A DNA stretch of 64,000 nucleotides from an uncultured Myxococcales bacterium (GCA_903850505.1 CAINLT010000126.1:22534-86533); one strand, 5' to 3'. Positions 28-12,067 are shown, numbered from the stretch's first letter. The notes: generated by a model not told the origin, from the letters alone. Numbers and translations: made by a program.

Positions 28-2253
28 CTACTTCTTCACCAGCACCATGACCCCGCGCGGCGGGATCGCGACGTTGGGCGCCGTCACGTCCGCGCCGCCC
101 ATCAGGTCCTGCCACGTCCCGTTCGGCAGCCCGCCGACGCTCGCCGGCGCATCGCTGCGGTTGATCGCCACGATCACTGTGTCCGCCGCAGTCGTCATCT
201 GGTAGAGCCACGCCTCGGGCGTAATCCACAGCGTCTTGCGCGTTCCCTGACGCAGCGCCACATGGTTCTTCCGCGCCTGACCCAGCGCCTTCATCCGCGT
301 CAGCAGCAGGTTCTGCCCGGCGTTGTAGGCGCTCCACTGCATCGGCCGGCGATTGTCGGGATCGCCCGCGCCCGCCATGCCAACCTCGTCGCCGTAGTAG
401 ATGAGCGGCACGCCGCGGTTGGTCATCAGCACCGCCATCGCCACGCTCATGCGCTCGTACGCGCTCGTGCCGGCGGGCTGCCCGGGCTGGTTGGCCCACG
501 CTTTGTCCTTGCCGTTGGCCCAGACGTCCGCCCAGATCGGCGTGTCTTCGGCCATGTGGATGGTGCGCGGGAGGTCGTGGTTGCCGATGAACGTGGACAT
601 GATCGCGTCCGGGCCAAAGAACCCGTCGTTGCCATCCAGGAATTTCTCCAGATCCGTCATCTTGCCCTGACGCAGCAGCACGGTGCTGTCCAGCGTCGCC
701 CGTTCGGCAAAGTCGAATTGACCGTCCAGCTTGGTGCACGGGTCGACAAACGACTTCACGAACGTCTGATCGCCAGAGAACGTCTCGCCCACCAGCCAGA
801 TGTGTTGTTGCCGCAGCGGTTCCACGTCCGTCAGCAGCCGCGCGCGCAGGTCGGTCAGCCACGCGCCTTCCACGTGCTTGATCGCGTCCAGCCGCAAGCC
901 GTCCGCGCCCGATTGCTGGAGCCACCAAATCACATTGTCAATCGAGGCTTTCCGCGCATCCGTGTTGAGGAAGTTGAAGTCCGGCAGGTAGGTCGTGAAC
1001 CAGCAATACAGCCCCGACGGGCCGTCCCACGGACAGACGCTCGCGCCACACGTGCAGTTTTGGCCCTGGACGGAGAGGCCGTGGAACCAGCCGTCGCTCT
1101 GGTGCTGCAGCCACACCGGCGAGCTCGCGTGCACATGGTTCATCGCATAGTCCAGCACGATCTGGATGCCCTTGACGTGCGCGGCCTGCACCAACGCCTG
1201 CAGTTCCGCCATCGTGCCAAAATGCGCGTTGGGCTTGTCGCGATCGCGCGGCCAATAGCCGTGATAGGCGGAGTACTTCTGGCCGTCGTCGCCGAACTCC
1301 AACGCGTCGGTTGGATCGAGCGGCACGGTCAGCCACAGGACGTTGACGCCGAGGTCGGTGAAGTAGCCGGCGTTGATTTTTTGCGTGACGCCGGCCCAGT
1401 CGCCGCCATTCCAGCCGGCGATCGGCGCGACGCCGGTGACGCTGCCGTTGTTGCTGGCGTCGCCGTCAAAGAACCGGTCGACAAAGACGAAATACATGAC
1501 GCCGTCGTGCCAGTCGAAGGCCGTGGGCTTGGCGTCGATGCCGCACACGGTCTGCAGTTTGCCGCAGACCCACGGGTCACATGCCTGTGCTGCCAGCAGG
1601 GAATTCGTGTTCCCGGTGCTGTCCGTCACTTTCTGCGGGTTGGTCGGATCGACGAGCCAGACGTCGCCCCCGCCGAGCTTCTGCACGTGGAACTTGTACT
1701 CGACGCTCTGGCCGTACGGCATGTCCGCGTCGACGCTCCAGTCCGTGCCGCTCGCGGTCATCGCGATGCCGGTCTTCCAGCCGTTGAAGCTGCCGCGCAG
1801 TTCGACGCTCGCCTCCGAGCCGTCGCCCGCGTATGTGAAAGTCGTCGTGCAGAGCTTGGGCGCGGGGCCGCAATCCGGGCTTGTAACGTCGGCAATGGCG
1901 TCAAGTCCGCTGTCCGGGACGACGTCGGGCGCAACATCGCCAACCGCGGCGTCGCTGACGGCATCCACAAGCGCATCCGCATCAGCGCCGGCGTCGGTCG
2001 CTGCGTCGTGAGTGACATCGGTCAGCACGTCCGCGATTGCGTCGGTTGCGGCATCTGCATCCGTCGGTTGGACCGCGTCGGCGGCATCCGTTGTTGCGAC
2101 GTCAGGCGTGTCCTTGCCGACGCCAAAATCCAGGCCTTCGACGTCGGCATTGGCGTCAGCGGCGGCATCGGCCACGTCCTCGCTTTGCTGCGGCGCGCAC
2201 GCCAACATTCCGCACAGGCCGGCCAGAAGCAGATGACGACGCGATGCGAACAT
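28..2253 (-). CDS. GH13 alpha-amylase family lipoprotein (acidic D/A-rich linker + CBM-like domain + catalytic domain)
   Basis: ORF 28..3108(-). GH13 signatures GYWPRDRD, VLDYAMNHV, DGLRLDAIKHV. An internal ATG (residue 286 of the ORF) gives the lipoprotein signal MFASRRHLLLAGLCGMLAC. The upstream part of the ORF overlaps the opposite-strand YceI gene and is treated as an artefactual extension. Confidence 0.85.
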   Translation of the reverse strand: MFASRRHLLLAGLCGMLACAPQQSEDVADAAADANADVEGLDFGVGKDTPDVATTDAADAVQPTDADAATDAIADVLTDVTHDAATDAGADADALVDAVSDAAVGDVAPDVVPDSGLDAIADVTSPDCGPAPKLCTTTFTYAGDGSEASVELRGSFNGWKTGIAMTASGTDWSVDADMPYGQSVEYKFHVQKLGGGDVWLVDPTNPQKVTDSTGNTNSLLAAQACDPWVCGKLQTVCGIDAKPTAFDWHDGVMYFVFVDRFFDGDASNNGSVTGVAPIAGWNGGDWAGVTQKINAGYFTDLGVNVLWLTVPLDPTDALEFGDDGQKYSAYHGYWPRDRDKPNAHFGTMAELQALVQAAHVKGIQIVLDYAMNHVHASSPVWLQHQSDGWFHGLSVQGQNCTCGASVCPWDGPSGLYCWFTTYLPDFNFLNTDARKASIDNVIWWLQQSGADGLRLDAIKHVEGAWLTDLRARLLTDVEPLRQQHIWLVGETFSGDQTFVKSFVDPCTKLDGQFDFAERATLDSTVLLRQGKMTDLEKFLDGNDGFFGPDAIMSTFIGNHDLPRTIHMAEDTPIWADVWANGKDKAWANQPGQPAGTSAYERMSVAMAVLMTNRGVPLIYYGDEVGMAGAGDPDNRRPMQWSAYNAGQNLLLTRMKALGQARKNHVALRQGTRKTLWITPEAWLYQMTTAADTVIVAINRSDAPASVGGLPNGTWQDLMGGADVTAPNVAIPPRGVMVLVKK

Positions 2254-2527
2254 GGCACTCCGTAGGCGCAAAACCGCTGATGGCGCCGCCGCCAGCGTAC
2301 TCGGTTGCGCCGCTGAATCAACTCCCGGAGTCGTCCTTGCTGCCGGGAATTCGCGGGTTGATTCCCGCTTCGATGCACCTGATTGTCTCTGTGCGTGAAC
2401 AGTGTTGTCCGCGGAATCGATATTGTGCCGACCGCGGCCGCGCGCTACTTTGTTCGAGCTGGCACCCGTTGTGGGTTGCGCGAGCGCCCATCCACATCCC
2501 GGCCCTGTGCCAATCCTGGAGTTCTCC

Positions 2528-3118
2528 ATGCGTACTTTTGCTTCCCTCGTTCTCTCGTTCGCCGTCGCGGCCGCACCGTTCACCGCTTTCGCCGCTGAGA
2601 AGGCCAAGCCCGCCGCCGCCGCGATTCCGCTGACCGGCACCATCGGTTTTGTCGGCAGCAAAGTGACCGGCCAGCATGTCGGCAACTTCAAGACGTGGAC
2701 CGGCCACGTCGAGCTGAAGGACGGCAAGGCCGTCGGCGGCAAGCTGGAATTCACCGTGCAGACGGAATCCGTGGAAGTGGACGTTGCCACCGCCAACGCC
2801 TGGACGCCCAAGCTGCTGGAACACCTGAAGGGCCCGGACTTCTTTGACGTCGCCAAGTTCGCGACCGCGGCGTTCAAGTCCTCGTCGATCAAGGCAGACG
2901 GCGGCGGCGTGAAGATCACCGGCAACCTGACCCTGCACGGCGTGACCAAGCAGATCGAGTTCCCGGCGACCGTGACGTTGGCGGGCAAGGACGTGAAGGG
3001 CGACGCCGAGTTCACGATCAACCGCAAGGATTTCGGCATCTCGTACGCCGGCAAGGAAGACGACCTGATCCGCGAAGGCGTGGTGCTGAAGATCCACGTC
3101 GCCGGCAAGGCCCAGTAA
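2528..3118 (+). CDS. YceI-family periplasmic protein
   Basis: ORF 2402..3118(+). Internal ATG gives the signal peptide MRTFASLVLSFAVAAAPFTAFA. The YceI-like body is ...LTGTIGFVGSKVTG...KITGNLTLHGVTKQIEF... Confidence 0.8.
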   Translation: MRTFASLVLSFAVAAAPFTAFAAEKAKPAAAAIPLTGTIGFVGSKVTGQHVGNFKTWTGHVELKDGKAVGGKLEFTVQTESVEVDVATANAWTPKLLEHLKGPDFFDVAKFATAAFKSSSIKADGGGVKITGNLTLHGVTKQIEFPATVTLAGKDVKGDAEFTINRKDFGISYAGKEDDLIREGVVLKIHVAGKAQ

Positions 3119-3137: not shown

Positions 3138-5090
3138 TCAGTGGACGGGGCTGGCGACGAACGCCGCTGAATCCGCGTTCCTGTAGCGTCCCAGCACCCG
3201 CAGCGCCGCTTCAGTTTCGCGGTCCACGCGGGCCAGCGCGGCGTCGATTTCCCCGTCCGTCGCCGACCGCGCGATGGTCTCCAGCTGCGAGAGGCTCGCC
3301 GCCAGCCGCCGCGCGCCGACACAGGCCGCGGTTCCGCGCTGGCGGTGGGCCAGCAGCGCCAGCTCCTCCCGATCGCGCGATGCCGCCCCAAGCTCCGCAC
3401 GGGTTTGCGCGGCCGCCTCGGCAAAGATCGCCACGACCGCATGGACTGTCGGCAAGCCGCCGGCGCGCTTCAGGTCCGCCAGCGTGGCCACCTCCAGCAC
3501 GGGCAGTTCCGTCGACGGAATCGGCACTTGGAGCGCCTGGCTGATGCGCCGCACCCGCGGCAGGTAGCGCAGCACCGCTTGCCGCAGATCATCGGCCCGC
3601 AGCGGCTTGACCAGCACGGCGTCCACGCCCGCCGCGCGCGCTCGCTCGTGGTCCTCCGCCATGACCGACGCCGTCAACGCCAGCATCGGCAAGCGCCGCC
3701 CCGGCGCCTCCGCCGCGCGAATCTGCGCCGCCGCAGCGTAGCCGTCCAGCACGGGCATCTGGCAATCCAGCAGCACGACGTCATAGTGCGTGCGCTGCAC
3801 CGCCAGCACCGCCGCCGCGCCGTCCGCGACCACATCGACGCTCACGCCCAGCGTTTCCAGCAGCCGCGTCGTGATGACCTGATTGATGCGGTTGTCCTCG
3901 GCCACCAACACGCGCCCGGCCACTGTTTCCGTCGGCGGCAGGTTCGAAGGCGGCGCGTTGTTGAGCGGCGCGGCCTCGGGCACCGCCAGTTCAACCTCAA
4001 AGAAGAACGTGCTGCCGCGCTCCGGCTCGCTCTGGCACTGTAGACGCCCGCCCATCAGCGCGACGAGCTGGCTGCTGATCGCCAGTCCCAGCCCGGTCCC
4101 GCCATAGACCCGCGTCGTGGAGGCGTCGGCTTGCGTGAACGGCTCGAACGCCTTGCCGAGGATCGCCGGTTCAATGCCGATACCGGTATCCTGCACTTCC
4201 AGGCGCAGCCGCACGTGGCCCGGCGTCCCCGCCGCAGTCCGCGCCCGCAGGACGATGCTCCCGCGCTCCGTGAACTTGGTCGCGTTGCCCAGCAGGTTGA
4301 TGAGGACCTGCCGCAGCCGCACGGCGTCGCCCAACAGCCATGGCGGCAGCTGCGCGGGCACGTCAAGCGCGACTTCCAGGCCTTTTTGCCGCGCCGTCAT
4401 CGCCACCAGTTCCAGCGACTCGCGGAGCACGGGCAGCAGCTCAAACTCGCTTTCCTCCAGCTCCATCTTGCCGGCTTCGATCTTGGAAAAATCGAGGATG
4501 TCATTGATGATCGCCAGCAGCAGTTCGCCGGATCCTTGAATCATGTCGACGTATTGGCGCTGATCGGGCGACAGCGGCGTCTCCAACAGCACTTGCGTCA
4601 CGCCGAGCACGCCATGCATCGGTGTGCGGATTTCGTGGCTCATGCGCGCGAGGAATTCGCCCTTGGCGCGATTGGCGGTCTCGGCCACTTCCTGGGCGGC
4701 GCGCAGCTGGATTTCCGTCTTTTCGCGTGCTTCGATCTCCGCGTCCAACTGCACGCGCAAGTCGCGCAACCGGCCAACGACGGCGCCGACCAGCAGCAGC
4801 CCCATCGCCGTCGCCAGCTGACCACCTTGCAGCCACGCGGACCAGGGAATCCCGAGCTGCAGCGAGCCGACGACCGTGTGCAGGGCCACGCAAGCCGCGG
4901 CGACGCCCAGACCGGCGAGCAGGCCGCCCTGACTGGCCGCCAGCAGCACCACGACGGTCGCGAGGCTCTCCGTCCCCGGACCCAGCGTGCGGTACAGCAC
5001 CCGGAAGCCAGCGCCATAGGCCACGGCGAACAGCAGGGGCAATTTGCGCCAAATCACATCGGGAATCCACCGCCGCTGCGCCTGCGCCAT
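3138..5090 (-). CDS. hybrid sensor histidine kinase / response regulator (TM sensor-HisKA-HATPase-REC-Hpt)
   Basis: H-box MSHEIRTPMHGVLG; G-box GTGLGLAISSQLVALMGG; receiver RVLVAEDNRINQ...DVVLLDCQMPVLDG...LTAS; C-terminal Hpt-like helix. Multiple N-terminal TM helices. Confidence 0.9.
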   Translation of the reverse strand: MAQAQRRWIPDVIWRKLPLLFAVAYGAGFRVLYRTLGPGTESLATVVVLLAASQGGLLAGLGVAAACVALHTVVGSLQLGIPWSAWLQGGQLATAMGLLLVGAVVGRLRDLRVQLDAEIEAREKTEIQLRAAQEVAETANRAKGEFLARMSHEIRTPMHGVLGVTQVLLETPLSPDQRQYVDMIQGSGELLLAIINDILDFSKIEAGKMELEESEFELLPVLRESLELVAMTARQKGLEVALDVPAQLPPWLLGDAVRLRQVLINLLGNATKFTERGSIVLRARTAAGTPGHVRLRLEVQDTGIGIEPAILGKAFEPFTQADASTTRVYGGTGLGLAISSQLVALMGGRLQCQSEPERGSTFFFEVELAVPEAAPLNNAPPSNLPPTETVAGRVLVAEDNRINQVITTRLLETLGVSVDVVADGAAAVLAVQRTHYDVVLLDCQMPVLDGYAAAAQIRAAEAPGRRLPMLALTASVMAEDHERARAAGVDAVLVKPLRADDLRQAVLRYLPRVRRISQALQVPIPSTELPVLEVATLADLKRAGGLPTVHAVVAIFAEAAAQTRAELGAASRDREELALLAHRQRGTAACVGARRLAASLSQLETIARSATDGEIDAALARVDRETEAALRVLGRYRNADSAAFVASPVH

Positions 5091-5094
5091 GGCT

Positions 5095-6570
5095 TCACGC
5101 TCCTGATGGCGGCGCTATGCCGGCGATCCGCAACGTCTCAGGAATTTTGTGCATTTCCATGGCCTTGTCCAGACACCACGCGCGGCCCATCTCGGCCGTC
5201 TCCACGCGCAGCCGCGCCGAAACGACGCTGGAGCAGAAGACCACGGGGCCCTGAAAACCGTTGGCGCGCGCCGTGTCGACGAGCGTCAGGCCGTCCATGC
5301 CGGGCATCAGCACGTCGCAGATCAGCGCGTCCGGCGGCGGATTGCGCCGCAGCCAGTCCAGCGCCGCTTCACCGCTTTCCAGCGCCTCGCAGTCGCAGCC
5401 GGTCGACACCACAAGCGTCCGAACCAGGCCGCGCATCACGCGGTCATCGTCGATCGTCAGCACCAGCGGCCGATCGCGCCGCACGGTGACCTGCACGGGC
5501 CGACCCGCCGCGGTCGCCGTCACCCGCCGCCGCGGCGAGGCCGTTCCAGCCCGCCCTCCCGGCAGGAACCACTCCGACCACGCGATTTCCGCCTCAGGTC
5601 GCGCTTTCTCAAACAGCCGCCGCACTTCCGCCATCGTCTGCGGCCGGTTCAGCGGGTTCTTCTGCAGCATGGACAGCACGACCTCGTCGAGCGCCGTCGG
5701 CACCCACTCCCCGCCCGGCATCGCCGATGGCACGACCGCAGGCTTGTTGACGATGCTGAACAGCATCTCGTCGAGCGTCTTGGCTTCAAACAGGATGTGG
5801 CCGCTCAGCAGCTCAAACACGACCGCGCCGAGGCTGTAGATGTCGGCGCGGTGATCGATGTGGCCGGCCGTCGCGACTTCAGGCGCCATCGTCGCTGGGC
5901 TGCCAAATGTCCGCTGCGCGTTGCTGCGGTGCGCAAGCGCGCGCACGGTCTGGCCATGCGGCGTCACGGCGTTGCGCGTGAGCTTGGCCAGGCCAAAATC
6001 GAGCACCTTGAGCAAGAAGCCTTCTGGCCGCGTGCGATCGTCGACGAGGAACAGGTTCTCAGCTTTGACATCGCGGTGCACAATTCCGGCCTTGTGCGCG
6101 GCGTCGAGCGCGGACGCCGTCTGCTCCACGAGCGCGAAGATCTCCAGCACGCCCAGGTGTTGTTTGGCGTCGAGCAACTTGGCGAGATCGCGGCCGTTCA
6201 AGTGCTCCATGACGATGAAGAACCCTGCGACGGGATCCTGGCCGTGATCGAGAACGCGTACGATGTTCGGGTGCGTGAGCAGCGCCTCCGCTTCCACTTC
6301 CAGCCGGAAACGCGAGACCATGGACGGATCGACCATGCGCCCGGGATTCAGCAGCTTGACCGCGACCATCATCGGCAGGCGTTCATGCGTCGCGAGGTAG
6401 ACGGTGCCAAAACCGCCCGTGCCGAGGTGCTTGCGCAAGCGGTAGCTGCCGCCGACGACGACGCCGATCAGGGGATCGACGGGTTCAAACTCGACGAGGA
6501 CGTTGCCGTCCTGGCCGCAATACCGCTGCTCGTCTGGATACGTGGCTTGGCACACGGGACACTGCTTCAT
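5095..6570 (-). CDS. Ser/Thr protein kinase with N-terminal zinc ribbon and C-terminal response-regulator receiver domain
   Basis: ORF 5095..6837(-). Start moved to MKQCPVCQATYPDEQRYCGQDG (CxxC...CxxD ribbon). Kinase motifs GTGGFGTVY, VAVKLL, HRDVKAENLFL, DFGLAK, APE. C-terminal REC: LVLTIDDD...ICDVLMPGMDG. The stop lies 4 nt upstream of the hybrid HK start. Confidence 0.85.
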   Translation of the reverse strand: MKQCPVCQATYPDEQRYCGQDGNVLVEFEPVDPLIGVVVGGSYRLRKHLGTGGFGTVYLATHERLPMMVAVKLLNPGRMVDPSMVSRFRLEVEAEALLTHPNIVRVLDHGQDPVAGFFIVMEHLNGRDLAKLLDAKQHLGVLEIFALVEQTASALDAAHKAGIVHRDVKAENLFLVDDRTRPEGFLLKVLDFGLAKLTRNAVTPHGQTVRALAHRSNAQRTFGSPATMAPEVATAGHIDHRADIYSLGAVVFELLSGHILFEAKTLDEMLFSIVNKPAVVPSAMPGGEWVPTALDEVVLSMLQKNPLNRPQTMAEVRRLFEKARPEAEIAWSEWFLPGGRAGTASPRRRVTATAAGRPVQVTVRRDRPLVLTIDDDRVMRGLVRTLVVSTGCDCEALESGEAALDWLRRNPPPDALICDVLMPGMDGLTLVDTARANGFQGPVVFCSSVVSARLRVETAEMGRAWCLDKAMEMHKIPETLRIAGIAPPSGA

Positions 6571-7049
6571 TGCGGCCCCGGCTTGTCGTCGCGATCGGCG
6601 TCGTCGGGCAGGGTCCCGGTCCGCGGGTCCAGGATCATCGACGGCACTTTCACGACCGGTGCTTCGTCGCCGGCAAAACGTGCGGCGGCGCGGGTCGGGG
6701 GCGCCCCGGCTTCGGCCTCGCGCGCGGCTGCGATCGCGGCGCGAATGCCTGCAACGCTGCGATCGGCATAGCGCTGCGTGACTTCCGTCGCGCCGGGTGC
6801 TTCCGTTGCGGCCATCGGCGGCAGCGCAGGTGACCAACTGGGCACTGCCTCAGGCAGCATCCGCCCGGTTGGCGCTGCAACGGGCGCCACGGTCTCCACT
6901 CCGGCTTGCGCTTGGGCGATGGCAGAGCGGATCTCAGCCAGGGCATTGCTCGAGTAGCGATGCGTCGTCTCTTCCGCGTCAATCAGCGGTTCAGCGGCCG
7001 ACGCGTCGTCCGGTTTGTGCTTCGTATCGGAGGGAAAACGCCTGGGCAT
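6567..7049 (-). CDS. hypothetical Ala-rich 160-aa protein translationally coupled to the Ser/Thr kinase gene
   Basis: ORF 6567..7049(-). ATG preceded by AGGTGG about 5 nt upstream. The stop overlaps the kinase ATG (ATGA). Non-Arg-rich composition with an internal repeat (HRYSSNALAEIRSAIAQAQAG / TQRYADRSVAGIRAAIAAAREAEAG). GC3 is lower than in neighbouring genes, so the call is uncertain. Confidence 0.4.
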   Translation of the reverse strand: MPRRFPSDTKHKPDDASAAEPLIDAEETTHRYSSNALAEIRSAIAQAQAGVETVAPVAAPTGRMLPEAVPSWSPALPPMAATEAPGATEVTQRYADRSVAGIRAAIAAAREAEAGAPPTRAAARFAGDEAPVVKVPSMILDPRTGTLPDDADRDDKPGPQ

Positions 7050-7208
7050 CGGTCCACCTGCAAGACTAGTCGCGGCAACAGCTGCGGCAACTTACCGCGC
7101 GACTGGACGGGCCGCAAGATTGCAGGCCCTTCAAGGGAATTCGCGACGCGGCCGCCGCGGTCCTTGACAACTTCGGCGCCGCCGTTGACCTTGCCGGCCG
7201 AGGTCGCG

Positions 7209-8135
7209 ATGACGCTGCAGGAACTCAAGTACATCGTCACGGTTGCCCACGAGCGGCACTTTGGCCGCGCGGCAAAAGCGTGTTTTGTCAGCCAGCCAGC
7301 GCTGTCCGCGGCGGTGCGCAAGCTGGAGGACGAACTCGGCGTCGTGCTTTTTGACCGCGACACGCCGACTGTGACCGTGACGCCGCTTGGCCACGCGATC
7401 GTCGCTCAGGCGCAGCGGGTGCTGGATGCCGCGGGTGAGGTGCACAAGCTCGCGCGCGCCGCCCAGGATCCGCTGGCCGTGCCGTTTGGCCTCGGTCTCA
7501 TCTACACGATTTGTCCCTATCTGTTGCCGCACTGGGTTCCGGAAATCCAGGCGCTCGCGCCGCACCTGCCGCTGCTGATGCAGGAAGGACTGACGGCGCA
7601 GCTTGTCGAGCGGCTGAACAATGGCGAACTGGACGCGATCGTCGTCGCTGAACCGTTCGCCGAGCCGGGCATCGAGACGCAGCCGCTCTACGAGGAGACG
7701 CTGCTCGCCGCGGCGCCGCTGGGCCACCCGTGGGCGAACGCCGACGTCGTCACGCCGGAGATGCTGATGCGCGAGACCGTGCTGTTGCTGACGCCCGGCA
7801 ACTGTTTTCGCGATCAGGTGCTCCAGGCCTGCCCGGATTTGAACCGGGAAGTCCAGACGGATTCGGCGCTGGTTCATGCGCTGCGCAACAGTTCGCTGAC
7901 GACGATTCGCCATATGGTGATGGCGGGCGTGGGCGTCACCGTGCTGCCCGCGACGGCGGTGTCGCCGGGGGACCATCAGCATTTGGTCCTGCGCCCGCTG
8001 GCGCCGACCCAACATCGCCGCGTCGTGCTGGCGTGGCGCCGTGCGTCTGCGCGTCCCAAGGTGCTGGAGCTGCTACAGCAAGCGCTGGATCAGGCGCTTG
8101 CGCACGGGCGGATGCCCTCCGCGCACCGATCATAG
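7209..8135 (+). CDS. LysR-family transcriptional regulator, OxyR-like
   Basis: ORF 6906..8135(+). Internal ATG gives MTLQELKYIVTVAHERHFGRAAKACFVSQPALSAAVRKLEDELG (LysR HTH). Lies upstream of rubrerythrin/rubredoxin. Confidence 0.85.
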   Translation: MTLQELKYIVTVAHERHFGRAAKACFVSQPALSAAVRKLEDELGVVLFDRDTPTVTVTPLGHAIVAQAQRVLDAAGEVHKLARAAQDPLAVPFGLGLIYTICPYLLPHWVPEIQALAPHLPLLMQEGLTAQLVERLNNGELDAIVVAEPFAEPGIETQPLYEETLLAAAPLGHPWANADVVTPEMLMRETVLLLTPGNCFRDQVLQACPDLNREVQTDSALVHALRNSSLTTIRHMVMAGVGVTVLPATAVSPGDHQHLVLRPLAPTQHRRVVLAWRRASARPKVLELLQQALDQALAHGRMPSAHRS

Positions 8136-8178: not shown

Positions 8179-8246
8179 GCGAAGTGCCACCTATTCTTCT
8201 CCCATCGCCGGCAGCGAGCCGGCAACAACACCCGGAGGAGGAGTTC

Positions 8247-8741
8247 ATGATGCAGGAACAACAGCAGCGCACGCGGCAGAACTTGGAGTCGGCGCTGGCC
8301 GGCGAGTCGATGGCGCACATCAAGTACCGCTATTTTGCCAAGCTGTGCCGGCAGGCGGGCGACGAGGCGACGGCCAAGCTCTTTGAGGCGACGGCGGATC
8401 AGGAAGTGCAGCACGCCTGGGGGCATCTGGAGCTGCTCCTCAGCGAGCAGAAACTGACCCCTGCCGAGTGCCTGAAGCTGGCGATCGCGGGCGAGACGCA
8501 CGAGTACACGGAGATGTACCCGCAGTTCCGCCGGGAAGCGGAGGCCGAGGGCAATACGCCGGCGCTGGCGGAAATCGACGCGCAGATCGCGGAGTCGCAG
8601 GAACACGCGGAGGCGTTTGCCGCGCACCTGAATCAAGGGATCGTGAAGAAGGCCGAGCGGCGGTTTGCCGCGCTGGCGCGGATTGAAGAACGGCACGCGG
8701 GCCACTACCGCGATGCCCTGGCTGGCTTGGAGGTGAAGTAA
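8247..8741 (+). CDS. rbr: rubrerythrin
   Basis: ORF 8184..8741(+). Start at [32 protein letters not shown], preceded by GGAGGAGGAG. Ferritin-like ExxH motifs followed by a C-terminal rubredoxin-like tail. Confidence 0.85.
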
Positions 8742-9004: not shown

Positions 9005-12000
9005 CTACGGGCACGCGTCGGCCCATCCCCACACCGTGTCGAGCTTGCCGGCGACGTCGAGCGAAGCTGTGTTGACCGCGCCAAAGGCATAGCGGTTCTT
9101 CGCTTCGACGCAGCCGGGGTATTTCTCGACTTTTGGCCAGTCGCCGCGCGTGTACTTGTACTCAAACCACGCGCCGCGCGGCACCGTCACCAGTCCCGCC
9201 GCCTGCCCCGGCACGCCGGTCCATTGCAGGGCCTGCTGCTGCCAGTTGTTGCCGGAGTGTGCGACAAAGACCGTGCTTCCCGCTGGCGTGTTCGCCGGCG
9301 CCTGCACCGTGAGATGCACTTGCACCGTCGTCGCGTCCAGCAGCGGCGGCCCGTCCGGCGTCTGCGGATGGTCGATGTGGAGGGTCCAGTTGCCGTTCGC
9401 CTGCGCGCCCGGCGGCAGGGCAACAACCAACGCGCGGTCGTTGCCGTACCACGTCCAACCCAGCGCGGCACCCTGCGCCTTGGCGTCCGCGACCTGCACC
9501 AGCAGCTGTCCATTCAACGACACTGCCGACGGCGCGGTGTCCAGCCGCCAGACGCGCACCCGCCACGCTTGCGGCGCTGGCGCATACGTCGAGCCTGCCG
9601 CGATCGCCGCCGCCAACTCCGTGCCGGACCCAATCGGCTTCAAGGTCAGCAGCGTGTGGCGCGCCGGCGCATCGGGCGGGCCATCGCCGGCATCCTGGCG
9701 CAGGGTAAATTGGCTCGGCTGCGGTCCTGGCACCACGTCGAGATCCAGCGGGCCCGCCACGTCCTGCGTCGCCCACTGGCGCAGCGGGCCGCGCGGCACG
9801 ATCGCGCCCGCGCGCAGCCACAGGGGCAGATCCGCGAGCGGTCCGGTCACGCTCAGCGTCGCCGGGCCGATGACCACCGCACCTGAGGTCGCCTGCACCC
9901 ACCGACCCGCCGGAAAGATCACCGCGCGCGTCGGGTTGGTCGGCGAAAGCTGCGGCGCGACGAGCACAAACGGGCCGAGCAGCGCCTCATCGCCCACGTT
10001 CTCCAGCGCAGGATCGTCCGGGAAGTGCCACCAGAGAGGCCGCAGGATCGGCGCGCCCGTCGCGTGCGCTTCGTCGGCGAGGCTCTCCAGGTACGGCAGC
10101 AGCCGGTAGCGGGCGTTGAGCAGGTCCCGCGCAATATCCTGCACTTCCTGGCCAAACTGCCAGGGCTCCTGATTGGGCGCGGTCTTCTCCGCGTGGCCGC
10201 GGAAGAATGGAGAAATGCTGCCCAGGGCAAACCACCGCGCGAACAGCGCCGGATCGCTGCTGCCTGAATAGCCGCCGACGTCGGAGCCCACCAGCGGCTC
10301 ACCTGAAAGGCCCAAGCCGAGGAGCATCGGCAACGTGCCGGCAAGCGTCGCCGCGGTGGAAGGCGCGTCACCCGTCCAGGCAGCGGCGTGGCGCTGGATG
10401 CCGGCGTAGCCCGCGCGCGTCAGCACAAAGGGCCGGCGATCCGGATACGCAGCCTGCAAACCCGCCTGCGTCGCTTCTGCCATGCGCAGGGCAAAGATGT
10501 TGTGCGCCGCGGCCAGCGTCGTCGCCTGACCATCGCCGTTCGCCGCGAGCGTATCAGGCACCGATCCGCCCTGATTCGCAGTGAAATCAGACGGCTCGTT
10601 CATGTCGATCCAGAGCGCGTCCGTACCCAGCGCAGTCTCCAGCGGCACCAGTTGCTGCGCCCACCACTGCCGGACTGTGGGATTGGTGAAATCCGGGAAG
10701 GCGGCGAGACCTGGCCATACCGTTCCCAGGTACGGCGCGCTGTTGCCGGCCGGGAGGAACAGGCTCTGCGCCAGCCCGGCAGCGTAGGGCGGCCACTGCG
10801 GATCGGCTTTCAGCCCGGGATCGACGATCGCCACGCCATGGAAACCTTGGGCGTGCAGCGTGTCCAGCAGCGCCGCCGGGTCGGGAAATGTCTGCGGATC
10901 CCAGGAAAATGAGCGAAAGCCGGCCATCTTCTGGATGTCGAACCAGAGGGAATCGCAAGGCAACTGCAGGTCGCGAAACTGCTGCGCCAAGGTCAGGAAC
11001 GTTGCGGCGTCCTCGTAGCCCCAGCGCGACTGGTGATAGCCGAGCGCCCACCGCGGCGGCAGGAACGGGCGGCCGGTCAGTTGCGTGTAGGTGTCCAGAA
11101 CCTGCGCGGCGGTTGGACCTGCGACGACGATCTGGTCCAGCACGCCGCTGCTCGCTGACACGCGCCAGCGGTCGTTGGCGCTCGCGGCGAGGTCATAGGT
11201 CTGCTGCCACGCGTTGTCGGTCAGGATGCCCCACGCCGTCGCGCCGCGCTTGACGAGCAACCACGGAACGGCTTGATAAAGCGGGTCGCCGTCCGGGTCA
11301 TAGCCGCCCAAAGTCGCGTTGTAGGCGTCCGTCGTGCGCAGCGTCAGTTTGCGGCCCCGGCGATCGGGCGCGCCGGTCTTGCCGCCGAGGCCGTAGAACC
11401 GCTCGCCGGGCAGCGCGCTCCGGGTCAGCGCGGGTTGGCCGTTGGCGCTCAGGGCAAAGCCGCCATCGGGCGGATCGGTCAGCAGCTGCGTGCCCGCCGC
11501 ATCGATGGCGACGATGTGACACTGGGAATCCACGTGCACCGCGAGCTGCGGCGTGCACAGCACCGCACCGTCGCACGTCTGGCCAACTGCAAATGCCGCG
11601 CTCGGCAGCGGTGGCAGCGGCAGCACTGCGCGCGTTGGCCAAGGCTGCGGCCCCGCCGCGGGCAGGTAACGCAGCCGAATCGCGCCGGGCAGAAGTGCCG
11701 AGAGTTGCAGGTGCAGGCCGGCGCACGTCGCGGTCCACGTGACGCCGTCAGTCTCCGCAGCCAGCCACGGCGGCGTGCCAGCGAGCGCGCCACAGGTCTG
11801 CGCGGGCGCGGCGGCGATGGCTGACAGCGGCGCGCACGCGGCCACAGCATCACCCGCGGCATCGGCAGAGGCGGCATCCGGCAGGGCGATGTCCGCAACC
11901 GCAGCGTCAACGACCGTTGCGTCCCCAGCGGCGTCGATCGGTGCAACGTCCGCGGTTTGCGGCGCATCCACGGCGTCGTCGGCGATTGCGTCGGGAGCGT

Positions 12001-12067
12001 TTTGTTGCGCGGGCGCCTGGCACGCCGCCAAGCCAAGCAACAACAGCCATCGGGTCAGCGTTTTCAC
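9005..12067 (-). CDS. GH31 alpha-glucosidase lipoprotein with C-terminal starch-binding-like (CBM) domain
   Basis: Signal MKTLTRWLLLLGLAAC, then a D/A-rich linker. GH31 core WFDIQKMAGF...WIDMNEPS. C-terminal VFVAHSGNNWQQQ...WFEYKYTRGDW resembles a CBM20/25-type domain. Confidence 0.85.
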   Translation of the reverse strand: MKTLTRWLLLLGLAACQAPAQQNAPDAIADDAVDAPQTADVAPIDAAGDATVVDAAVADIALPDAASADAAGDAVAACAPLSAIAAAPAQTCGALAGTPPWLAAETDGVTWTATCAGLHLQLSALLPGAIRLRYLPAAGPQPWPTRAVLPLPPLPSAAFAVGQTCDGAVLCTPQLAVHVDSQCHIVAIDAAGTQLLTDPPDGGFALSANGQPALTRSALPGERFYGLGGKTGAPDRRGRKLTLRTTDAYNATLGGYDPDGDPLYQAVPWLLVKRGATAWGILTDNAWQQTYDLAASANDRWRVSASSGVLDQIVVAGPTAAQVLDTYTQLTGRPFLPPRWALGYHQSRWGYEDAATFLTLAQQFRDLQLPCDSLWFDIQKMAGFRSFSWDPQTFPDPAALLDTLHAQGFHGVAIVDPGLKADPQWPPYAAGLAQSLFLPAGNSAPYLGTVWPGLAAFPDFTNPTVRQWWAQQLVPLETALGTDALWIDMNEPSDFTANQGGSVPDTLAANGDGQATTLAAAHNIFALRMAEATQAGLQAAYPDRRPFVLTRAGYAGIQRHAAAWTGDAPSTAATLAGTLPMLLGLGLSGEPLVGSDVGGYSGSSDPALFARWFALGSISPFFRGHAEKTAPNQEPWQFGQEVQDIARDLLNARYRLLPYLESLADEAHATGAPILRPLWWHFPDDPALENVGDEALLGPFVLVAPQLSPTNPTRAVIFPAGRWVQATSGAVVIGPATLSVTGPLADLPLWLRAGAIVPRGPLRQWATQDVAGPLDLDVVPGPQPSQFTLRQDAGDGPPDAPARHTLLTLKPIGSGTELAAAIAAGSTYAPAPQAWRVRVWRLDTAPSAVSLNGQLLVQVADAKAQGAALGWTWYGNDRALVVALPPGAQANGNWTLHIDHPQTPDGPPLLDATTVQVHLTVQAPANTPAGSTVFVAHSGNNWQQQALQWTGVPGQAAGLVTVPRGAWFEYKYTRGDWPKVEKYPGCVEAKNRYAFGAVNTASLDVAGKLDTVWGWADACP

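Follow-up and report, generated by a model that had tools for sequence, protein, structure and literature searches.

Three tightly packed genes on the minus strand of the 64,000-nt stretch of DNA that was analysed (the window) form one signalling operon of an uncultured Myxococcota bacterium, which encodes a small Ala/Pro-rich protein (ORF160), a Hanks-type Ser/Thr kinase with a fused receiver (REC) domain and a hybrid histidine kinase (HK). We propose that a phosphorelay gates the fused Ser/Thr kinase and that ORF160 is the dedicated partner of this kinase and its candidate substrate; to this account as a whole we give a probability of roughly 0.55. As far as sequence comparison indicates, all three genes are under purifying selection (dN/dS of 0.10 for ORF160, 0.07 for the kinase and 0.09 for the HK), the trio is conserved, and the catalytic and phospho-acceptor residues are all intact. 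The features of the operon are as follows.

7054..7059, minus strand: AGGTGG Shine-Dalgarno-like sequence, 4 nt before the ORF160 ATG at 7049 (direct sequence reading)
6567..7049, minus strand: gene 1, ORF160, a 160-aa Ala/Pro-rich, predicted mostly disordered protein of an uncharacterised family (homologues, dN/dS, AF2 model)
6909..6971, minus strand: ORF160 repeat 1, residues 27-47, E-T-T-H-R-Y...A..IR.AIA.A, predicted helix 31-52 (alignment A1, AF2, locus motif scan)
6720..6785, minus strand: ORF160 repeat 2, residues 89-110, E-V-T-Q-R-Y-A-D-R-S-V-A-G-I-R-A-A-I-A-A-A-R, predicted helix 94-114 (alignment A1, AF2, locus motif scan)
6636..6650, minus strand: ORF160 C-terminal K-V-P-S-M motif, V135, P136 and S137 invariant (alignment A1)
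5095..6570, minus strand: gene 2, 491-aa Hanks-type Ser/Thr kinase with a C-terminal REC domain
6505..6561, minus strand: zinc-ribbon-like motif, kinase residues 4-22, CPVC-x10-C-x2-D-G (conservation, AF2 model)
5632..6444, minus strand: protein kinase domain, residues 43-313 (Pfam Pkinase)
5131..5463, minus strand: REC domain of the kinase, residues 370-480, phospho-acceptor Asp419 codon 5314-5316 (Pfam)
5100..5104, minus strand: AGGAG ribosome-binding site of the HK gene, within the 3' end of the kinase gene (direct sequence reading)
3138..5090, minus strand: gene 3, 650-aa hybrid HK, membrane anchor-HisKA-HATPase_c-REC-Hpt
4770..5042, minus strand: hydrophobic N-terminal region of the HK, about residues 17-107, 3-4 predicted membrane segments (hydropathy profile)
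4470..4667, minus strand: HisKA/DHp domain, residues 142-207, H-box His152 codon 4635-4637 (Pfam, E 1.5e-22)
3987..4331, minus strand: HATPase_c catalytic domain, residues 254-368 (Pfam, E 1.2e-27)
3573..3911, minus strand: internal REC domain of the HK, residues 394-506, Asp442 codon 3765-3767 (Pfam, 77 bits)
3222..3434, minus strand: Hpt domain, residues 553-623, His582 codon 3345-3347 (Pfam Hpt, 22.1 bits)

Organisation and distribution of the operon

The kinase ATG lies on the ORF160 stop in an ATGA overlap (6570-6567), and the kinase TGA (5097-5095) is followed by the HK ATG at 5090 after a 4-nt spacer (TGA-agcc-ATG). The operon ends at the HK, since its stop faces a convergent YceI gene. 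A preliminary description of this DNA had reported both junctions, the AGGTGG site and that the three genes are closely coupled, and each of these points was borne out. The module is present in Myxococcota MAGs at L001, L002, L006, L008 and L010 with differing flanking genes; L002, L006, L008 and L010 also retain the ATGA overlap. In L003 and L011, the trio includes a long form of ORF160, and L005 retains only the kinase and the HK (46% identity). The kinase orthologues of L004 and L012 (51-52% identity) have neither an adjacent HK nor an ORF160-like gene; therefore, a kinase from an unlinked gene can act on the REC, and the kinase family taken together can do without the small protein. All members of the families that were compared come from metagenome assemblies.

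The gene models required one correction. The mechanical kinase ORF, which begins at the TTG at 6837, encodes 580 aa, and the one from the ATG at 6570 encodes 491 aa. The GC3 of the 89 extra codons is 0.64 against 0.84 in the kinase body, and the methionine of the MKxCP motif is the start in 30 of the 30 kinase orthologues. Codon composition and alignment place the true kinase start at ATG 6570 and not at the upstream TTG, as was expected by the preliminary description, which considered the ORF to be over-extended. The same description regarded the upstream gene as unannotated; the gene is real, but public gene callers already have it, and a 97,762-bp NCBI/ENA contig carries gene calls with the identical 160-aa, 491-aa and 650-aa products. 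The 580-aa version of the kinase is absent from the public collections, which hold the 491-aa product.

ORF160 and its two repeats

Judged from its homologues and substitution pattern, ORF160 is a real gene, as had been proposed. There are 19 homologues (41-100% identity), and the dN/dS given above was obtained at a dS of 0.43 against L006. The opposing reading, by which this frame is open by accident in GC-rich DNA and the kinase has either a long 5' leader here or an extended N-terminus, can draw on the high frequency of open frames in DNA of 67% GC, on the lack of a Pfam or NCBIfam match for the 160-aa protein and on a weak codon-position signal (GC3 of 0.74 and GC2 of 0.61, against a GC3 of 0.84-0.86 in the neighbouring genes). 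However, the low dN/dS argues against it, the frame is open in every relative despite indels and contains invariant motif islands (alignment A1), and the ORF160 profile recovers the same frame in all of the related loci. Moreover, an extension in the kinase frame shows a non-coding GC pattern, and the orthologous kinases all start with MKxCP. The chance frame is refuted as far as sequence analysis reaches, and we give it very little credence.

ORF160 was described as Ala-rich, which agrees with its composition (21.9% Ala and 12.5% Pro). No Pfam, NCBIfam or PDB entry matches it, only 11 cluster representatives among 1.84 billion proteins match its profile, and we regard it as the founder of a very small, uncharacterised and previously undescribed family by these profile searches. 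Its AF2 model (pLDDT 59) contains two helices only, and as modelled the protein is mostly disordered except for these helices, which follow the invariant Thr residues. Both T29 and T91 are invariant in 18 sequences (alignment A1), each lying in an E-x-T-x-R-Y motif that precedes a helix. The other invariant residues are R31, A36, I40, I44 and A47 in repeat 1 and E89, R93, Y94, G101-R103 and I106-A109 in repeat 2. In the long forms there is an additional domain of ~150 aa, together with a [VI]PAPS[MI] motif that is related to K-V-P-S-M; these forms had no Pfam match, and one of them (P0140) had no meaningful PDB match.

The kinase-receiver fusion and the hybrid histidine kinase

The kinase begins with MKQCPVCQATYPDEQRYCGQDG, in which a zinc ribbon had been recognised. 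A conserved motif is present there (C4, C7, C18, D21 and G22 are at least 90% conserved among the 30 orthologues) and was modelled as short strands (AF2, pLDDT 81-84), but it has only three Cys, with the conserved Asp21 at the fourth ligand position, and its match to PF13240 (17.1 bits) is under the Pfam cut-off of 25; we call it zinc-ribbon-like. The assignment of a eukaryotic-like Ser/Thr kinase was confirmed by PF00069 (Pkinase), which matches residues 43-313 with 148 bits against a cut-off of 31.7 (E 4.5e-43). The catalytic set is present (G50-G55, K72, E91, H165-R166-D167, K169, N172, D191-F192-G193 and P230-E231). Over the 30 aligned orthologues (43-86% identity), all of it from K72 onwards is invariant together with G53, G55, D243 and R309, and G50 and G52 of the Gly-rich loop are at least 90% conserved. 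The best PDB match is the kinase domain of M. tuberculosis PknB (34% identity, E 4.6e-23, Foldseek TM-score of 0.89 on the target). By its profile, catalytic residues and predicted bilobal fold, the product of gene 2 is a Hanks-type Ser/Thr kinase.

The C-terminal REC domain is complete, as had been stated. PF00072 (Response_reg) matches residues 370-480 with 66.2 bits against a cut-off of 30.2; the acidic pocket D374-D375-D376, the phospho-acceptor D419 and K469 are invariant in the 30 orthologues, and residue 447 is Ser or Thr. A conserved helix, in which W331 is invariant, and a linker join it to the kinase. The AF2 model of the chain has two domains (pLDDT 85), and its pTM of 0.81 suggests that their packing is defined.

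The window kinase shares the fold and the full catalytic residue set with PknB and the other bacterial Hanks-type kinases, and it has an R87-F88 pair in the C-helix, a type of pair that was reported to be typical of bacterial STKs (bioRxiv 10.1101/2025.01.12.632604). Unlike PknB, it has neither a transmembrane helix nor a PASTA domain, and its presumed control element is the fused cytoplasmic REC domain rather than an extracellular sensor. An assignment to the PknB/Stk1 PASTA kinases (NF033483, PknB_PASTA_kin) was rejected at 218.7 bits against a cut-off of 450, with an alignment to positions 2-270 of the 563 in the model only. The preliminary description called the architecture uncommon, which holds in part. 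Among the best-matching Myxococcota kinases it is a minority one, since kinase-REC fusions account for 5 of 88 among the matches listed that rank below the orthologue group, but such fusions recur. These five Myxococcota proteins (P0072, P0081, P0082, P0088 and P0096) share the order of Pkinase then Response_reg; however, their identity to the query is only 33-40% and covers part of it, and they are longer (473-679 aa). The two that were checked, P0081 and P0096, are encoded beside the histidine kinase CheA in Che-like operons, and no ORF160-like gene was called beside the other kinase-REC fusions.

In the HK, whose alignment comprised 8 orthologues with identity down to 42%, the HisKA (79.9 bits), HATPase_c (97 bits) and internal REC (77 bits) domains that had been proposed are all above the Pfam threshold. 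The H-box S151-H152-E153-I154-R155-T156-P157, the N, G1 and G2 boxes, and D399, D442, T473 and K495-P496 are invariant. The proposed Hpt domain scored just under the cut-off (PF01627, 22.1 against 24.6 bits), but its motif H582-x3-G586-x5-G592-A593 and V591 are invariant in the 8 orthologues, the L005 orthologue has an unmarked Hpt match, and the alignments to the TorS and ArcB models extend through the Hpt regions of those models. The N-terminal region contains no recognised sensor domain (no Pfam match), and G37-P38-G39-x-E41 and H71 are invariant in it (alignment A3). The HK, with its candidate Hpt domain, shares the order HisKA-HATPase_c-REC-Hpt and all of the phospho-acceptor residues with the unorthodox (tripartite) hybrid kinases TorS, BarA and ArcB, to whose NCBIfam models it gives long alignments (E 6e-125 to 9e-95). 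Nevertheless, the HK scores far under each of the equivalog cut-offs (TorS 418.5 against a cut-off of 676.5, BarA 391.6 against 890 and ArcB 318.4 against 838). Unlike them, it has no periplasmic, HAMP or PAS sensor and instead has a compact polytopic membrane anchor with the invariant GPGxE and His71; its presumed terminal acceptor is a kinase-borne REC rather than a DNA-binding regulator.

The putative phosphorelay and its relation to known systems

In the proposed mechanism, the membrane-anchored HK would autophosphorylate on His152, and the phosphoryl group would pass to its own Asp442, to His582 of its Hpt domain and finally to Asp419 in the REC that is fused to the C-terminus of the PknB-like kinase. 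Phosphorylation of Asp419 would switch the kinase domain, and the kinase-REC protein would therefore be a response regulator with Ser/Thr phosphorylation as its output. ORF160, which is encoded just upstream and translationally coupled, would be the dedicated partner of the kinase and, most likely, its substrate, phosphorylated on the invariant Thr of both E-x-T-x-R-Y repeats.

Gene adjacency points to the HK of the trio as the phosphodonor of the kinase REC, which we consider to be on balance probable; by analogy, the non-orthologous fusions that likewise adjoin histidine kinases (CheA) favour such a relay. Gating of the kinase by the REC appears slightly better than an even prospect. The flow might instead be reversed, with the HK or its Hpt domain being tuned through phosphorylation by the Ser/Thr kinase; alternatively, the fused REC might be a phosphate sink or a localisation module with no control over the kinase. 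Some kinase orthologues do lack an adjacent HK, and the Ser/Thr kinases PktA5 and PktA8 of M. xanthus are proposed to work together with EspA, a hybrid kinase, and perhaps to act on it (PMC4320627). On the other hand, the REC retains every residue for phosphorylation-dependent switching in 30 of 30 orthologues and is tied to the kinase by the W331 helix and linker in a chain that was modelled with a pTM of 0.81, and the complete H-D-H relay of the HK needs a terminal Asp acceptor, for which the operon encodes no other REC. We consider these alternatives to be quite unlikely.

The substrate role of ORF160 is put forward tentatively, on the invariant Thr residues, gene linkage and a loose resemblance to known phosphosites. 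The E-x-T-x-R-Y motif, which is acidic at -2 and aromatic at +3, loosely resembles the acidic-upstream, hydrophobic-at-+3 pattern of the mycobacterial PknA-dependent phosphosites (PMC7164672). Within the same relay, ORF160 might be a regulator or scaffold: it could dock to the kinase or act as its pseudosubstrate, or it could be an adaptor whose two helices and KVPS motif link the Hpt domain of the HK to the REC of the kinase. Its repeats are modelled as amphipathic helices in an otherwise disordered chain, the extra domain of the long forms could bind something else, and the tight translational coupling suggests stoichiometric co-production with the kinase. However, the strictest conservation before each helix is that of a Thr in a fixed context, which pure helix docking would not need, and we regard a regulator or scaffold as rather improbable.

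A bolder version of the proposed relay, in which the operon is a self-contained five-step His-Asp-His-Asp-Thr cascade, ORF160 is its dedicated substrate or phospho-switch adaptor and kinase-REC fusions are a general output class of the Myxococcota, is possible but doubtful. If true, these fusions would be a general and so far unstudied response regulator output of this phylum, in both hybrid-kinase and Che-like pathways, and the operon would parallel, in a fused bacterial form, the fungal link from phosphorelay to MAPKKK. In the yeast Sln1-Ypd1-Ssk1 system, which acts on Ssk2/Ssk22, a Ser/Thr kinase is under the control of the last receiver domain in a His-Asp-His-Asp phosphorelay. The same holds for S. 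pombe, in which Mcs4 acts on a MAPKKK (PMC3829895). The logic of these relays is the one proposed here, but the likeness is functional only, with no sign of common descent; the fungal response regulator is a protein of its own that binds the kinase, whereas here the two form one polypeptide and the Hpt domain is fused to the sensor kinase. Among myxobacteria, the Esp system of M. xanthus similarly joins hybrid histidine kinases (EspA and EspC) with Hanks-type kinases (PktA5 and PktA8) and EspB in one pathway (PMC4320627). In contrast to the window kinase, the Ser/Thr kinases of Esp lack a receiver domain, and complex formation is the presumed connection.

Gene models and boundaries of the operon

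The operon lies in DNA with a GC content of 67-70% (3138-7049), in which many mechanical ORFs can be drawn on both strands. The following gene models were considered:

6567-7049, minus strand: ORF of 160 aa (ORF160), a small Ala/Pro-rich protein, first gene
5095-6837, minus strand: mechanical ORF of 580 aa from a TTG, containing the Ser/Thr kinase with a C-terminal receiver (kinase-REC), second gene
3138-5090, minus strand: ORF of 650 aa, a hybrid histidine kinase (HK), third gene
2402-3118, plus strand: YceI-like gene (Pfam YceI, E 7e-33), converging on the HK stop

The junctions named in the preliminary description were all read in the sequence: the kinase ATG overlaps the ORF160 stop (caATGAag, 6570-6567), an AGGTGG (7059-7054) is located 4 nt ahead of the ORF160 ATG at 7049, and four bases, agcc, separate the TGA stop of the kinase (5097-5095) from the HK ATG at 5090, ahead of which there is an AGGAG (5104-5100). 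The HK gene ends at 3138, and the operon stops with it because the YceI-like gene ends 19 bases beyond, at 3118. The kinase ORF had been described as over-extended, which was borne out by three observations. The GC by codon position was 0.76/0.79/0.64 over the 89-codon extension (TTG 6837 to ATG 6570) compared to 0.71/0.45/0.84 in the kinase body; the same MKxCP methionine start was found in 30/30 kinase orthologues (43-86% identity, 477-508 aa); and the exact 491-aa, 160-aa and 650-aa products are held in public collections, from a 97,762-bp NCBI/ENA contig, while the 580-aa version is absent from the collections that hold the exact 491-aa product. The kinase start is thus ATG 6570.

Taken alone, the codon-position GC of ORF160 (0.74/0.61/0.74) was ambiguous, in keeping with a protein so rich in Ala (22%) and Pro (12.5%), and on composition the frame could be a chance one. 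This explanation was ruled out by its conservation, dN/dS and profile searches. Nineteen homologues (41-100% identity) were found, and in their alignment the frame is open in every relative, many indels notwithstanding, and invariant islands are present. The dN/dS against the closest relative was 0.10 at a dS of 0.43 (kinase 0.07, HK 0.09), and the family profile found the same frame at the same position in every related locus. ORF160 is, therefore, a real and conserved gene, albeit a faster-evolving one, with 53-62% identity where the kinase has 80-86% and the HK 78-79%. The claim that it was not annotated stood only in part, since public gene callers already call it.

Domain architecture and distribution of the two kinases

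Both halves of the second gene product matched Pfam models above threshold, Pkinase (43-313; E 4.5e-43) and Response_reg (370-480; 66.2 bits, cut-off 30.2), which places a Ser/Thr kinase and a complete receiver on one chain, as had been proposed. Invariant in the orthologue alignment are the VAIK Lys72, the C-helix Glu91, HRD-x-K-x-x-N (165-172), DFG (191-193), APE (230-231), Asp243 and Arg309. The receiver was examined for missing Asp, Thr and Lys residues and was found to be intact, with Asp374-376, Asp419 and Lys469 invariant and residue 447 always Ser/Thr. The AlphaFold2 model (pLDDT 85.4, pTM 0.81) has a disordered linker at 343-359. In a PDB search, the best solved match was the kinase domain of M. 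tuberculosis PknB (34% identity, over the kinase domain only). With the PASTA-kinase model the protein scored far below the cut-off, so that it is no orthologue of PknB. Of the zinc ribbon described at the N-terminus, the motif itself is present and conserved (CPVC-x10-C-x2-DG), but it is atypical, with three Cys and an Asp, and its zinc-ribbon match was below the Pfam threshold.

The hybrid HK-REC-Hpt gene that had been reported directly downstream was found with HisKA (142-207), HATPase_c (254-368), REC (394-506) and Hpt (553-623) domains. The Hpt match was just under the cut-off (22.1 bits, cut-off 24.6), but its motif, H582-x3-G-x5-GA, is invariant in eight orthologues, the most distant of which has 42% identity, as are His152, the N, G1 and G2 boxes, Asp442, Thr473 and Lys495. 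Long alignments to the TorS, BarA and ArcB models all remained under the equivalog cut-offs. The hydrophobic N-terminal ~110 residues probably form 3-4 membrane segments, and no recognised sensor domain was found in them. Within this anchor (residues 17-107; 4770-5042, minus strand), G37-P38-G39-x-E41 and His71 are invariant in orthologues down to 42% identity, a pattern that hints at sensing by a conserved site within or next to the membrane.

The named relatives all come from uncultured Myxococcales/Myxococcota MAGs, and their loci (L001-L012) differ in gene arrangement.

Gene arrangement in the related loci (kinase identity is to the window)
L001, L002, L006, L008, L010: kinase 80-97%; small protein, kinase-REC, HK
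L007, L009: kinase ~85% (partial); beginning of small protein, kinase-REC, HK, then contig end
L003, L011: kinase 56-60%; long-form partner, kinase-REC, HK
L005: kinase 46%; kinase-REC and HK only
L004, L012: kinase 51-52%; kinase-REC alone

The trio is thus kept in five loci, and the ATGA overlap in the four of them that were checked (L002, L006, L008, L010). The flanks of these five vary, with OxyR-like or other genes upstream and YceI or others downstream. Upstream of the distant kinase orthologues in L004, L005 and L012, no ORF160-like frame was found (L004 and L005 by the family profile). Judged by the sequence comparisons, the arrangement of kinase-REC with the predicted HK relay is conserved under purifying selection. 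In L001, the HK (5451-7416) was recovered as two tblastn pieces and is called as a 442-aa gene, probably through an assembly frameshift, and in L011 (6480-8465) it carries a 21-residue insertion within the receiver domain.

The architecture had been considered uncommon. It proved to be recurrent rather than unique, although only five other REC-bearing kinases were present among the listed matches P0033-P0120, ranked below the orthologue group. The two of these that were looked up, P0081 and P0096, are located inside Che-like operons, adjoining CheA-CheW-MCP, one of which also has CheY, CheB, CheR and CheX; proteins of kinase-then-REC design have, therefore, come to be paired with histidine kinases on more than one occasion. 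The Che-like fusions suggest that Ser/Thr kinases can act as outputs of chemosensory pathways in the Myxococcota.

The small putative partner protein and the proposed phosphorelay

No known family was found for ORF160 in Pfam, NCBIfam, a PDB sequence search or a HMMER scan of 1.84 billion cluster representatives, and the full scan returned only 11 members of its own family. Its AlphaFold2 model (pLDDT 59) has no fold and only two helices (31-52 and 94-114). The helices correspond to an internal repeat that is present twice, ETTHRY...IRSAIAQA and EVTQRYADRSVAGIRAAIAAAR, with an invariant Thr in an E-x-T-x-R-Y context ahead of each helix; a third island, KVPSM, is located near the C-terminus. 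In more distant lineages, an ORF160-like N-terminal half precedes an additional domain of ~150 aa. These long forms (274-323 aa; L003 5033-6004, L011 4073-4951, and the proteins P0140 and P0154-P0156) matched nothing in Pfam, and P0140, searched against PDB sequences, gave no meaningful match. Only the short form seems to occur in the lineage of the window. ORF160 is, by its sequence relationships, a member of an orphan family of putative partner proteins.

The HK would form a complete H1-D1-H2 relay, for which a terminal Asp acceptor is required. Besides the HK's own receiver, the operon encodes just the one borne by the kinase, whose gene stops 4 nt short of the HK start; this receiver could fill the place. 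On the simplest reading, the phosphoryl group would pass from His152 to Asp442, His582 and Asp419, and phosphorylation of Asp419 would switch the kinase domain. The compact predicted unit formed by kinase and receiver (pTM 0.81) fits such switching without proving it. Both invariant Thr residues of ORF160 have an acidic residue at -2 and a Tyr at +3, a context that loosely resembles the acidic-upstream, hydrophobic-at-+3 preference of mycobacterial PknA-dependent sites (PMC7164672). Because of this context, the two invariant Thr residues, the disorder and the translational coupling, we tentatively favour ORF160 as a possible substrate of the kinase; a role as an adaptor or pseudosubstrate would be nearly as likely. 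The operon is best read as a putative phosphorelay with a Hanks kinase output and an orphan partner family. The preliminary observation was confirmed and its interpretation supported, with the qualifications that public gene callers already have the gene, that the zinc ribbon departs from the typical form and that the architecture recurs.

Relation to known systems and neighbouring genes

Bacterial two-component signalling and Hanks-type Ser/Thr phosphorylation are mostly regarded as parallel systems with only occasional cross-talk. Here, the junction between them appears to be hard-wired, with an intact receiver fused to an intact kinase next to a complete predicted H-D-H relay. In fungi, the Sln1-Ypd1-Ssk1 relay controls a MAPKKK. 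The relay with Mcs4 also controls a MAPKKK (PMC3829895). The operon is similar to both in logic, but here kinase and response regulator are one polypeptide. The Esp system of Myxococcus is another case in which hybrid and Hanks kinases cooperate (PMC4320627); unlike the kinase in the window, it has no fused receiver. The combination of kinase and REC domain is already visible in databases, in uncultured carriers. Neither kinase-REC response regulators nor the small-protein family were described in the literature searched, signalling censuses and the bacterial STK atlas included; this search did not extend to several key reviews, including Galperin's and a two-component survey of Myxococcus, so earlier descriptions may exist. 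With its tiny putative partner carrying two invariant Thr motifs, the operon is a compact testable system that could show control of a eukaryote-like kinase by Asp phosphorylation, and it points to a wider class of kinase-REC outputs in Myxococcota, Che-like pathways included. Its significance would rise if the Asp-to-Thr hand-off and the role of the partner were demonstrated.

Upstream of the operon, the window contains:

7206-8132, plus strand: OxyR-like LysR regulator, divergent from the operon
8184-8741, plus strand: rubrerythrin-like gene, after the OxyR-like gene
9005-12067, minus strand: large GH31 glycoside hydrolase gene

A link of the operon to the OxyR-rubrerythrin pair was judged to be weak because this neighbour, which is kept in L006, L007, L009 and L010, is replaced in L001/L008 and L002. 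On the other side, the 1026-aa ORF at 28-3108 (minus strand) is over-extended; only its residues ~421-931 match CBM48-like and alpha-amylase domains, and its first ~200 codons are antisense to the YceI-like gene, which relatives call as a separate gene. The signalling operon thus sits between carbohydrate-active enzyme genes, the GH31 and the alpha-amylase.
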